A DNA stretch of 64,000 nucleotides from a virus (IMGVR_UViG_3300046170_000301), one strand, 5' to 3'; shown: positions 15,943-49,772, counted from the first letter of the stretch. Notes: generated by a model from the letters alone, not told the origin. Numbers and translations: made by a program.

Positions 15943-17971
15943 TCAACCAATCACTGGTGCTTTGAGAGCCACAGGAGTGGATTCAACGGAGGCAAGATCC
16001 AAGGGAAAGTTGTGTGCGTTCCTTTCGTGCATCACCTCAAATCCAAGGTTTGCTCGGTTGAGGATGTCAGCCCAAGTGTTGATAACACGACCCTCAGACT
16101 CCACAATAGACTGGTTGAAATTGAAACCATTAAGGTTAAAGGCCATAGTAGACACGCCAAGAGCAGCGAACCAGATACCAATAACAGGCCAAGCAGCCAG
16201 AAAAAAGTGAAGGCTACGGGAGTTATTAAACGAGGCATATTGGAAAATCAGACGACCAAAGTAACCATGAGCAGCTACGATGTTGTATGTTTCTTCTTCT
16301 TGTCCAAACTTGTATCCGTAGTTTTGGGAGTCTTGTTCTGTGGTTTCACGAACGAGAGAAGAAGTAACCAGACTTCCGTGCATAGCACTAAAGAGGCTGC
16401 CACCGAATACCCCAGCCACACCGAGCATATGGAAGGGATGCATAAGGATGTTGTGTTCTGCTTGGAAGACGAGCATGAAGTTGAACGTTCCCGAAATTCC
16501 AAGAGGCATTCCATCACTGAAGGAACCTTGACCGAAAGGATAGACAAGGAACACTGCAGAAGCAGCGGCAACAGGAGCAGAATAAGCAGTACAAATCCAA
16601 GGACGCATACCCAGACGATAGGAGAGTTCCCACTCTCGACCCATATAAGAGAAGACACCGATAAGGAAGTGGAAGACCACTAGTTGATAAGGACCACCAT
16701 TATATAGCCACTCATCGAGGCTGGCAGATTCCCAGATTGGATAGAACACATAACCCATAAGTTTCCTTATGGTGCTGACTATATCATCACCCTAAATTGA
16801 GGGTGTCGGGCGCTAATGTCGTATTACAGGTCACGCTTGACCAACCGACTAGTCGATGAACCTTACACAGAAGTATCGTCTGTGTCTTGGCTGCTGATTG
16901 CCATACCAGTAAAAGGGTTAGGTTTCCAGCAATTCACCCGATTTTCTTATACCATTACTGATATAAGGCACTCCTTTACGAATGCAATCCAATCGCATTA
17001 GAACTTGGAACAACAGCACCAGAAATGATGTTGTTTCCATACATGAGTGAACCAGAAACAGGTTCACGAATCCCGTCGCCTACATCTAACAAACAACCAT
17101 ATCTTTTGACTTAGGTTGTTTCTGTTGACGGATTTGATTTGCTCGTTTTGCATTTTCTACTCTTCCACCATTTTCTACCCACTCTTTCCAAGTTTGTAGA
17201 TGAGAAATACATTCGGTTATTCTTTCTGCTCGTCGTACTCCCATATAAGGAAGTATTTTTTGTAGAATGAATAATACCTTTTCTTTTTCTCCAATGTGAA
17301 GTGTATAAACTTGTTTACCTTTTACAGTTTTTCTTGATGGTGAGAAATAAGACTTATCTAAAAGTTTACTCAACCTTTGGATAATATCTTCATCTACCAT
17401 AGAAACTTTAATAAAAGGTGCTGGTGGTATTTTAGAAACTTCATAACGGTCTTTGGAACGATTATCTATTCCAAAGTATCCTTCACCTTCTAATAAACCA
17501 GCAATCCAAGCAACATCAGTTTCAGTTAGGTTTAACATTTTACTCTTGCATCTTCTGTATTATTTATACAGCATTAGCAAGAAAAAGTCAACAGTAGATG
17601 TGTGGACTATATCTTCACCCTTCATAGAAGGGGCTGGGCACTCTAGCCTGTTATTAAGAGGACTGAACCTCTCAGGTAGTCTCTGAACCTTCCTTAGGTG
17701 TACCTAAGGCTTGGCTGCTGATTGCCTTTCGGTTTCCAGCAATTCACCCAGTTTCGTCAATACTCTTACGAGTAAGGGACACCGATTAGTTAATGTCTAC
17801 GGGTGGTGCTCCAATAAAAGCAACGATGAAGCAGACAGTTGCGGCGAGCAACGTTGGAATCATTAGGGTTCCAAACCATCCGACATAAAGACGATTGTTT
17901 GTTGAAGTAACCCACTCACAGAATGATTCCCAGACGTTAATTCGTTGAGGTCTAAGAACTGTAGTTGTCAT
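15943..17971 (-). CDS. psbA: Photosystem II D1 protein, three exons: 17971-17793, 17078-16982, 16746-15943
   Basis: Joined exons are 179+97+804 = 1080 nt, giving 359 aa with continuous ...PPVDI/DGIREPV...AIGLH/FYPIWE...HNFPLDLA. Confidence 0.95.
16747..16981 (-). mobile_element. Group I intron 2 of psbA (235 nt, no ORF)
   Basis: P1 GCAU|UC...GAGUGC with a U.G wobble at the splice site; terminal G; same P/Q/R/S core (AAUCAGCAG, GUUCAUCGACUA, AUGAUAUAGUCA). Confidence 0.92.
17079..17792 (-). mobile_element. Group I intron 1 of psbA (714 nt) with homing endonuclease ORF in P9
   Basis: Exon ends in U with P1 pairing GACAU/GUGUC; terminal G; core AAUUGCUGGAAA, AAUCAGCAG, GUUCAGAGACUA, AAGAUAUAGUCC; ACAUCUA/UAGAUGU closes the loop holding the ORF. 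Confidence 0.92.
17086..17538 (-). CDS. Single-motif LAGLIDADG homing endonuclease
   Basis: [12 protein letters not shown] motif, VSMVDEDII and ILPYM segments; own promoters TATAAATA (17561-17568) and TTGACT-17-TATAAA. Confidence 0.85.
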
Positions 17972-40211: not shown

Positions 40212-40666
40212 CTTCTCCAAAGTTTTCCTTCTGCTTTACGTCTCCTAAGTAAACCAGCTTCTACTTTACTACCAGGATTTCTATACATCTCAAGAACTTT
40301 TGGAACATCATTCCAGTTACGTTTTTTTAATGTCCTCGTAATTGTATTGAAACCAGAAGAACCATAGAAGTTAGCACCAAGATTATAAGCAAAACTTAGT
40401 AGTGCTCCACGCTGATTCATATTCATCTCATTCCAGTATGGAATCTTTGTTAGTGGTGGAAGGAACTCTTTCGTAATTTGATTAATTAGAAGAGAATCAG
40501 CAACACTCTGGGATATTTGCTGGTCAAGTGTAAATGGTTTGCCATTGTAATCTCTTATGCTACCCCATCCATTAGTAATAGGAAGACCACCAGAAAGAGG
40601 GTCTGGATATGCTTTTAGATGGCAACCTTCAAACTCTTTAATTAACTCTACTCCTTTTTCTGGCAC
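40208..40666 (-). CDS. GH24 lysozyme (endolysin domain)
   Basis: LIKEFEGCHLKAYPD...GWG, ALLSFAYNLG and GLLRRRKAE motifs. Confidence 0.9.
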   Translation of the reverse strand: MPEKGVELIKEFEGCHLKAYPDPLSGGLPITNGWGSIRDYNGKPFTLDQQISQSVADSLLINQITKEFLPPLTKIPYWNEMNMNQRGALLSFAYNLGANFYGSSGFNTITRTLKKRNWNDVPKVLEMYRNPGSKVEAGLLRRRKAEGKLWRS

Positions 40667-40695
40667 CTCATATTTACTAGTAGGAGTAGAGTTTG

Positions 40696-41394
40696 TTACT
40701 TTTTTGCTTCAAAGGTTCTCCCCCATCCTGACGTAGGACCTTCTGGAGTCCACCTACGAGCCAGTTCTGAACGTTTGTAGATGGTACCCTTGCCGTTGTA
40801 TACCGAGCTTGTGTAGGCGTCGTTGAGGGAGCCGTAGGGGTCGTTGACGACGTAATCACCCGATAGGGTCTTTCCTATGACCACAACCATGTGCCCACCT
40901 GTAGGATTAGCAAGAGTGCCACGATGAAGTATCCCAATAACCACTGGTCTTCGCTTAGAAAGTTCACGATCAAGGTCATTAAAGCTAAGATGATAATGAA
41001 AGCTTGATTTAATTCCATAAGAATTTAACACTCTCGTCTGTACTAAATGGTTTGCAGTGTCACCAATAGAGAACACTTTTCTGATGTAAGCATCATCTCC
41101 TTTCTTACCAAGCAATGTGCCAGGTTTAAAATATTCAAGACACATAGCACAAGCAGAACTATTACAAGTTCTATTGGCATCTCTATAATTATCTGTCTGT
41201 GGATAATATGGAACGTTGAGAACAAGGTCTGCTGGTTTTGCCAACGGTGTTCTATATGTTTTAACCCAATCTGCTTCATCATAAAGAAGTTCTGGTTTCA
41301 ATACAGAAATTTCAGAAGCAAGTTTTGCTACTGCTTCTAAATGTTTCGGATTATTCTCGTCAAAATATTTGAAAAAATTCTTGAAGTCAATCAT
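40696..41394 (-). CDS. C39-like peptidase (cell-wall/lysis associated)
   Basis: LNVPYYPQTDN...CNSSACAM, GGHMVVVIG and VNDPYG catalytic Cys/His/Asp motifs. Confidence 0.85.
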   Translation of the reverse strand: MIDFKNFFKYFDENNPKHLEAVAKLASEISVLKPELLYDEADWVKTYRTPLAKPADLVLNVPYYPQTDNYRDANRTCNSSACAMCLEYFKPGTLLGKKGDDAYIRKVFSIGDTANHLVQTRVLNSYGIKSSFHYHLSFNDLDRELSKRRPVVIGILHRGTLANPTGGHMVVVIGKTLSGDYVVNDPYGSLNDAYTSSVYNGKGTIYKRSELARRWTPEGPTSGWGRTFEAKK

Positions 41395-48342: not shown

Positions 48343-48510
48343 TTATCTCTTCTTTTTTACTTTACTTACTAATGCTCTCAAAAAACTTCTAACGACTTGA
48401 AAAACACCCTTTTCTTTCAACCATGGAATGTAAGACAATGCTTCGGATATTGCCCATAAAGCAGCAAATACAATTGCGGCTCCATGAGAAATCAAAAAGC
48501 ACTCAATCAT
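48343..48510 (-). CDS. Small holin-like membrane protein (55 aa)
   Basis: MIECFLISHGAAIVFAALWAISEALSYIPWLKEKGVFQVVRSFLRALVSKVKKKR*: TM helix and basic tail. Confidence 0.55.
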   Translation of the reverse strand: MIECFLISHGAAIVFAALWAISEALSYIPWLKEKGVFQVVRSFLRALVSKVKKKR

Positions 48511-48686
48511 TTCTCAGAGCAGTTTTTGAGAAGAGCAACTCTTACGCTAGTTGAAATGAGGTCATCGATATCATTATCGGTTGTCTGAACATAGCGGTCA
48601 AGAAGGTCAACTACGAGAAGCTTGGTGTTGCAAGAGTTGAGGAATTTAAAAAGAATTGGTCTAAAAAGTTGTACTAAATTGTCCAT
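48507..48686 (-). CDS. Hypothetical protein (59 aa)
   Basis: MDNLVQLFRPILFKFL...LVVDLLDRYVQTTDNDIDD; AAGGAG SD; ATGA overlap with the next gene. Confidence 0.65.
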   Translation of the reverse strand: MDNLVQLFRPILFKFLNSCNTKLLVVDLLDRYVQTTDNDIDDLISTSVRVALLKNCSEK

Positions 48687-48890
48687 AATTTATTCTCCTT
48701 AAGGTAAGTTGGTCGTGGGTTTCCCTAATCTATTTATGTAAATTGGGGTCTTTCAACTGAGGAGACATTGTTTTAGATTGTCCCTTCATTGCTTTCTTAA
48801 GATACTTTCTTGTTTTCTTTTTATTTTCCATATCGTCAGGACCACCGTCTTCTAATTTAGGCATCACCTCAACGGTAGGTTCTGACTTCT

Positions 48891-49772
48891 TTACTTTTTT
48901 TCCTCTTCAATCTCCTTACGAAGTTCTGCTTCCTCTTTCATTTTTTTCTTCTTAGAAATAATCTTGGAAACTTTCTTACGACGATTTAGAAGATACTTAT
49001 CGGACTTATCGTGGTCACCATCATTGTCAATATCCTTATCTTCTTTCCCTACTGGGTCAAGTGCTTCATTGGTCTTTTTCTTTTCTGGAAGACCTTTATG
49101 CTTAGTAGAAGCAAACTTCTCTGCTTCCTTTCCAGTCATTGACTTAGCAGCTTTATCAACTTCTTTAGAACCACCTCTCATTTCGCCTTTCTTTTTAGCG
49201 TGAACCATTCCCATGAAGCGTTGTTGTGCTTTACTTACTGACTTCTCTTGAAGTTCTTCGCCATCATGCTCGACTTCATCACCAGCTTTCACACAGTTAT
49301 CAACTCTCTTACCACCTTTTATCTTGGTTCCCATTTGCTTGTATCCTTTCCAACAAGCTTTACCATCTAAACCTTTCTTCTTGTCTGCTTCAAATACATA
49401 AGTGAAACCATCAAGTTCAAACTCGTAGGTTTCTTTCTTCATATCCTTATCTTTCTTCTCACAGCGGGAGCACCCCTTCCCGCCGCAGTAAGAGCAGGTA
49501 TCACACGACTCCTTCGTAACCAGTTTCGTGGTGTCCTTAATCTCTGCTCCGTGTGATTGTTTAATACCAGAACCAGTCCGTAAATCAACAGCAGGGTCAG
49601 GAGATGAAGCGTTTGCTTTTGGGTCTTTTTTGGAAGTGTCATCTTGCTTCTTTTTAGACTTGTCTAGCGTAGGAATACCCTCTTCGCCTAAACGTTTTAC
49701 AGTTCCTTCAATGAGTGCTTTTGAGAACTCGTCATTATAATGAACAGAGTTTACTGGTTTCTGTTTTTCCAT
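48891..49772 (-). CDS. Lys/Glu-rich putative internal head/prohead core protein
   Basis: Mosaic of motifs: [11 protein letters not shown]...[18 protein letters not shown]...[26 protein letters not shown], and a Cys cluster. Confidence 0.65.

Follow-up and report, generated by a model that had tools for sequence, protein, structure and literature searches.

The window analysed here is a 64,000-nucleotide stretch of viral DNA (IMGVR_UViG_3300046170_000301), and the junction of interest lies on its minus strand. A zero-frame CDS at 48891..49772 (-) encodes a lysine/glutamate-rich modular protein of 293 aa (P0001) whose 3' end reads ...CGT AAG GAG ATT GAA GAG GAA AAA AAG TAA. The slippery heptamer A_AAA_AAG (48900..48894, -) is in phase with this frame, and the zero-frame stop TAA (48893..48891, -) abuts its 3' side, in the 'shifty stop' position. 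The first two bases of the TAA finish a Val codon (GTA) when read in the -1 frame. Read from G48894, that frame gives 54 residues before a stop at 48732..48730 (P0002, 54 codons plus stop, 48730..48894, -). The 293-aa protein would be the short isoform, and a long isoform would be 347 aa. An earlier note on this DNA had reported the same heptamer and stop and an open -1 frame behind them; the sequence bears this out, and the 54-residue peptide is identical to the one given there.

The -1 frame is blocked upstream by a TGA at 48909..48907, close 5' of the heptamer. After the heptamer it contains no start codon other than GTG 48867 and ATG 48864, which come ten codons in. The ATG (48862..48864, -) belongs to an invariant E-[VI]-M-P motif and would be the start codon if the downstream ORF were a separate small gene. 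An internal Shine-Dalgarno-like AAGGAG (48912..48917, -) lies 11 nt 5' of the heptamer and is a candidate upstream stimulator. An interrupted 14-bp hairpin (48835..48886, -) begins 7 nt 3' of the heptamer and encloses both GTG 48867 and ATG 48864, which argues against independent initiation there.

The 293-aa protein contains a Pfam DUF3008 module at residues 180-232 (E 7.5e-7) and matches phrog_4359, an uncharacterised PHROGs family, over its full length (E 3.7e-78). It carries a Cys cluster and a DxDxDGxxDxxD-like acidic motif. The near-invariant block at residues ~241-257 (window 49000-49050, -) fits the DxDxDGxxDxxD calcium-binding loops of thrombospondin type 3 or dockerin-like repeats, and a fused relative (L050) has a sub-threshold Dockerin_1 match (E 7e-4). 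The protein Atlas gave a poor model (pLDDT 0.57) and only viral hypothetical clusters; DUF3008/DUF6321 modules are joined there to other phage proteins too. The earlier description of the product as a late, internal-head-like protein finds no support. Searches of Pfam, PHROGs and the Atlas matched P0001 only to DUF3008 and uncharacterised families, with no match to the T4 internal head proteins (IPI-III), and TATAAATA is absent between 50551 and 48315.

The protein family is virion-associated in one distant relative, S-SCSM1, where both corresponding genes are labelled virion proteins in GenBank; the virion proteome of this phage was determined by mass spectrometry (PMC9602691). The second of the two is a free-standing DUF3008 gene that begins MP from its own ATG, with AAGGAG 7 nt upstream and no heptamer. 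The possibility that E-[VI]-M-P is cut by a T4-type prohead protease was weighed and rejected, since the -3 residues do not fit L/I-x-E: across the aligned extensions, the residues before the E of [TVHS]-[VI]-E-[VI]-M-P do not match this cleavage pattern, nor is a capsid-targeting sequence recognisable. Extension residues 7-17 (48844-48876, -) hold an invariant (T)VEVMP.[IL].D that resembles a segment of bacterial class-I release factors (...AAVEVMPEIED..., P0053). The release-factor profile match (whole-library E 2.8e-5 over 14 residues) is probably chance, if a curious one beside a stop codon.

To sample relatives, we scanned IMG/VR with protein seeds, all of them peptides without the C-terminal EEKK, and obtained 69 loci. 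The C-terminal region is present in 42 of these, and 35 of the 42 have GAA AAA AAG followed by a stop (TGA or TAA), directly or one codon later. In all 35 heptamer-bearing loci the -1 frame encodes the E[VI]MP extension, and GAAAAAAAG plus stop is kept in all 35 loci carrying both parts. Six loci without the heptamer also lack the extension and lead into a different downstream gene through an ATGA overlap. The stop lies one codon further on in L008-L011 (AAG CAG TGA), where the heptamer is still in phase. The 35 loci are related, so their number is not a count of independent events; they contain 26 distinct junctions. The sample is deep, as the extensions are only 14-49% identical to that of the window (18 other extensions aligned).

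In an alignment of 22 junction sequences, GAAAAAAAG is the sole invariant 9-nt block, and the ATG of E-[VI]-M-P is invariant as well (22/22). The heptamer codons AAA AAG, with GAA before them, occur in 24/24 distinct sequences; other conserved Lys columns prefer AAG over AAA by about four to one, and are variable. We judge from this codon usage that the heptamer is conserved beyond amino-acid need. The same junction is present in the cultured phages S-PM2, S-CAM1, S-RIM32, S-RIM44, Sf-CH11 and Sf-CH3. The closest relative (L002, IMG/VR 3300001533_000006; 89-97% identical) retains the heptamer, the stop and most of the hairpin. In its extension (L002:2275-2510, against window 48700-48935), the loss of 38 nt takes out the lysine-rich KK.YLKKAMK motif, changes the frame and leaves 27 aa, which suggests that the distal extension is dispensable or decaying in this lineage.

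Several features indicate that the region directly after the heptamer is coding in the -1 frame. The spacer between heptamer and ATG is 8, 9, 10 or 21 codons long depending on the clade, and the frame offset is always 2. Spacer entropy by -1-frame codon position is 0.76/0.48/0.98, the pattern found in the flanking true coding sequence, and nearly all variation in the V-E-V codons that precede the ATG falls at third positions. Exchange of TAA and TGA among relatives is synonymous in the -1 frame (GTA/GTG, both Val). In the TAA-type junctions (window, L002, L013, L015 = S-RIM32, L016, L019 and L024 = S-PM2), the heptamer is followed by GTA, which cannot start translation, and several of them, the window included, have no start codon before the conserved V-E-V. 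The extension matches phrog_11250 (E 6e-12) over residues 2-41, and thus already ahead of the window's first start codons. These lie 9-10 codons inside the conserved region of this family, within the hairpin, and the ATG has a GAGG only 2 nt before it. For an independent small gene (T4-GC 843 / phrog_11250), we searched the window for a start and ribosome-binding site of its own at the start of the conserved region and found none.

GenBank records differ on where the second ORF starts: S-CAM1 uses a GTG that overlaps the stop, S-PM2 and S-RIM44 use an internal GTG, Sf-CH11 uses the ATG, and Sf-CH3 leaves the ORF unannotated. Among the records examined, none has a joined CDS; the parts are annotated as separate genes.

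Natural in-frame fusions of the two parts occur. At the syntenic position, L050/L051 have a single, diverged 281-aa ORF with an internal K-I-E-I-M-P, found on 10 contigs (L050:1321-2166). On a 196-kb contig (L072:3290-3480), a 23-nt deletion removes heptamer and stop and fuses ...RKEIE to VVEVMPEIDDG... in frame. The motif Met is retained inside both fusions, where no start is needed. As evidence for a trans-frame product at the other junctions, these fusions are indirect. With P0002 alone as query, a search for homologues of greater length found nothing, and an exhaustive HMMER profile search returned mainly small ORF calls; the fusions P0039 and P0040 were found by profile search. A third apparent fusion (P0030, L073) was discounted because its pilon-polished contig has broken genes next to it as well.

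The body and the extension share modules. DUF3008 lies in the extension of S-PM2 and S-RIM32 and in the body of the window's protein, so both frames draw on one module pool, and DUF3008 and DUF6321 are exchanged between body and extension in different phages. On some metagenomic contigs (proteins P0034 and P0016), the extension ORF continues into a different module or into the next small gene, which is homologous to window 48507..48686; the cluster's module boundaries thus appear fluid.

We examined four candidate stimulators of slippage: the Shine-Dalgarno-like element, the hairpin, the host tRNA and the stop codon. GGAG is conserved throughout one large clade: its GAG codon comes after a K, A, Q or R codon whose third base is always G. 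L005/L006 lack the element, Sf-CH3 has a weak version of it, and the S-PM2 clade has AAGGAGG only 7 nt upstream. It could be a by-product of Lys/Glu-rich coding.

The window hairpin has a predicted stability of -21.6 kcal/mol. Relative to dinucleotide shuffles its z is -5.05, and relative to sequences in which the -1 frame was synonymously recoded it is -2.9. Most clades show excess downstream stability (z about -2.3 to -4.0). The S-PM2 clade has no significant downstream structure, and neither does the in-frame fusion L050. RNAalifold over all clades returned no consensus structure, and counting pairs on a named helix within a clade gave 0 double changes and only C-to-U wobble changes. With no compensatory changes and no consensus fold, the hairpin at this site is a thermodynamic prediction. 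A search of Rfam gave no frameshift-element match, the DnaX element included, and two sub-threshold chance matches (PK-repBA and a CRISPR repeat; E 0.19 and 1.8).

The heptamer A_AAA_AAG is highly shift-prone in E. coli, where tRNA-Lys(UUU) is the sole Lys decoder (PMC5009743, PMC6771820). One picocyanobacterial genome reached via psbA (a Synechococcus sp. MAG, G001), and thus from a possible relative of the host, has 44 tRNAs and UUU as its only Lys anticodon. The phage tRNAs in the window are Gly, Pro, Trp and Arg. The phage psbA (15943-16758, -) has its best matches, at ~90% amino-acid identity, in genome contigs of Cyanobium and sub-cluster 5.2-type Synechococcus, some of them freshwater and estuarine MAGs, a hint at a host from outside the open ocean. 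As for the stop codon, its invariant position, 0-1 codon after the heptamer, suggests that it may contribute.

Counts within the window carry little weight. The earlier note had argued from two identical contexts that random error was a poor explanation. The 10-mer AAAAAAGTAA occurs 2 times in the window against 0.96 expected, and 19/100 shuffles reach 2, so this argument is weak alone and the window count does not establish significance. A scan of the window also found a third in-phase A_AAA_AAG TGA at 16201-16210 (+), after a 103-codon ORF and with a 158-codon -1 ORF. This site is antisense to psbA (15943..16758, -), and we rejected it as a spurious chance look-alike. Its presence means that heptamer-plus-stop matches from a single window need comparative support. 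The signal beyond chance is comparative, and we locate it in the invariance of the heptamer, the adjacent stop and the -1 phase.

A second gene of the window has a comparable junction. A C39-like peptidase gene (40696..41394, -) ends GCA AAA AAG TAA (site 40696..40705), and a GH24-type lysozyme follows it in the -1 frame (region 40644-41394, -). Among 80 IMG/VR loci, the heptamer lies 0-1 codon from the stop in 46/58 distinct junctions. The lysozyme motif is at frame offset 2 wherever it could be located (41 of those 46). A motif-anchored scan that included the window gave 47 distinct junctions, with A_AAA_AAG and the -1 phase kept. In 42/47, a hairpin with z below -2 starts 3-10 nt downstream; the sequence of its arms differs between clades and their complementarity is kept. 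No ATG, GTG or TTG precedes the LIKEFEG motif in 31/47. The run is usually no longer than 6 A and may follow C, T or A; the in-phase A_AAA_AAG is constant. A two-domain endolysin is probably made by frameshifting at 40696-40705.

The earlier suggestion that frameshifting recurs in this phage thus holds for two genes, the peptidase/lysozyme site being conserved in the same way. As a phage-wide habit, it is not supported. A scan for AAAAAAG plus stop in five complete cyanomyovirus genomes found long ORFs ending in this way at these two genes only, which speaks against a phage-wide system.

The anatomy of the site, its conservation, the -1 phase, the coding signature of the extension and the natural in-frame fusions are direct observations. 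The best explanation of the comparative data is the one the earlier note had proposed, an alternative C-terminus reached by -1 frameshifting. Specifically, we favour a programmed -1 ribosomal frameshift of the dnaX/IS911 type that would yield 293-aa and 347-aa isoforms, with a probability of about 0.75. Most ribosomes would read GAA AAA AAG, meet the TAA and release the 293-aa protein. A fraction would slip back one base, either with both tRNA-Lys on AAA AAG or with a P-site tRNA-Lys on AAG and the stop in the A site. These ribosomes would continue with GTA AAG AAG..., adding 54 residues to give the 347-aa isoform. Slipping may be favoured by a single tRNA-Lys(UUU) that pairs weakly with AAG, by a slow-to-decode stop directly 3' of the heptamer, by the internal AAGGAG 11 nt upstream and by the stable hairpin 7 nt downstream, which would also bury the only in-frame ATG. 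Slippage itself, the role of each stimulator and the role of the extension are what we infer from the sequences.

An alternative is that the junction separates two genes, the downstream ORF (T4-GC 843 / phrog_11250) being translated from ATG 48864 or GTG 48867, possibly by re-initiation 27-30 nt after the TAA. The A-run would then be kept for some other reason, a C-terminal Lys-Lys or an A-rich translation enhancer for example. GenBank does list two CDS, the second starting at GTG or ATG, and metagenome gene callers also split the junction, but annotators disagree on the start and pass over the ORF in Sf-CH3. The invariance of the ATG in the MP motif would suit a start codon, yet the M is retained in the in-frame fusions too, and in the window this ATG sits within the -21.6 kcal/mol hairpin with no usable SD spacing. 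The free-standing S-SCSM1 gene, starting MP with AAGGAG 7 nt upstream, also speaks for separate initiation. Against this, coding periodicity and the PHROG match begin upstream of the ATG, the TAA-type junctions offer no start codon for that upstream part, and the frame is always -1 despite varying spacer lengths. We consider two wholly separate genes unlikely. Since the ATG is invariant, a short protein may be made alongside the fusion, by separate initiation or by re-initiation.

Transcriptional slippage, in which RNA polymerase adds one A within the A7 run, would give the same fusion but for one extra Lys. A homopolymer is the substrate for it; the run at this site is 7 A in all loci and always G-flanked, and sequence data alone do not separate the two routes. 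Efficient slippage by bacterial polymerases usually needs runs of ~9 or more. The parallel endolysin site usually has six A's and a variable preceding base, with only the in-phase A_AAA_AAG constant, and the zero-frame phase is kept even where the stop is one codon on (L008-L011). Phase matters only for ribosomal slippage, so its strict retention counts against the transcriptional route, and both the nearby stop and the hairpin 7 nt away are in keeping with a ribosomal signal. For these reasons we rank transcriptional slippage lower and regard it as improbable. A one-base homopolymer assembly error, or a recent frameshift mutation that split one gene, is scarcely credible. Homopolymer runs are error-prone, and errors seem frequent on two pilon-polished contigs met in the protein search (L073), but the same A7 run, stop and -1 arrangement recurs in 35 metagenomic loci and six cultured, independently sequenced phages, and is therefore not an error.

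We found no description of frameshifting at these cyanophage genes in the literature searched, which included the cyanomyovirus comparison of Sullivan (2010) and the recoding catalogue of Atkins et al. (2016). Few marine viruses are as abundant or as well sequenced as the cyanomyoviruses, and this junction is annotated in them as two genes with inconsistent starts, or the second ORF is omitted. Should the -1 frameshift prove real, it would be the first case of recoding described for this family, going by the literature searched. Gene models for T4-GC 842/843 would be corrected in every Synechococcus-type cyanomyovirus, and proteomics searches would gain a concrete trans-frame target. Together with the peptidase-lysozyme site, it would point to a reusable cassette that makes two isoforms from one message.

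A broader version of this idea is speculative and, in our estimate, rather unlikely. Kyanoviridae would use a 'Lys-Lys-stop' -1 cassette (A_AAA_AAG, adjacent stop, hairpin) at two unrelated genes, giving a peptidase-lysozyme endolysin beside free peptidase and a long, virion-associated DUF3008 form, with isoform ratios as a read-out of host translational state (light, nutrients, tRNA modification). Because slippage would compete with termination and depend on the host's single tRNA-Lys, isoform ratios could report that state.

The proposed frameshift resembles several known systems. T7/T3 gene 10A/10B is alike in that a -1 shift a few codons short of a phage gene's stop lengthens the protein by ~50 residues and makes a second isoform; the T7 gene 10B extension is 53 aa, against 54 aa here. 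Unlike the T7 product, the protein studied here was not identified as a capsid protein in any search, and only a relative in the distant S-SCSM1 is known to be virion-associated. The T7 signal is G_GUU_UUC with a distant 3' element (PMC5009743). A 'shifty stop' (Weiss et al., 1987, as cited in PMC5009743) is a stop codon placed immediately 3' of a slippery run, so that slow termination promotes P-site tRNA slippage; it was defined in synthetic and E. coli contexts, unlike the site here.

IS911 and IS3-family OrfAB have the same A_AAA_AAG, together with an SD-like element upstream, structure downstream and the fusion of two consecutive ORFs that overlap in the -1 frame, to which the candidate SD-like element, the predicted hairpin and the proposed fusion here would correspond. 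The IS ORFs overlap substantially and their fusion is a transposase, whereas at the present junction only a few codons overlap, the heptamer runs straight into the stop and the proteins have no relation to transposases. The E. coli dnaX tau/gamma system has the same A_AAA_AAG heptamer and a sole tRNA-Lys(UUU), which for the host here is inferred from one picocyanobacterial genome. In dnaX, an internal SD-like element lies ~10 nt upstream and a stem-loop ~6 nt downstream (PMC5009743, PMC6771820); the candidate element and the predicted hairpin here lie at 11 and 7 nt. There is no sequence or Rfam similarity to dnaX, and the upstream and downstream elements here are not uniform across clades. 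The outcome also differs: dnaX ribosomes that shift soon reach a stop and make the shorter product, whereas here the zero frame stops at once and the shift would lengthen the protein. As the mechanism would be of the known dnaX/IS911 type, what is gained is not a new principle but a new, conserved and testable instance of it.
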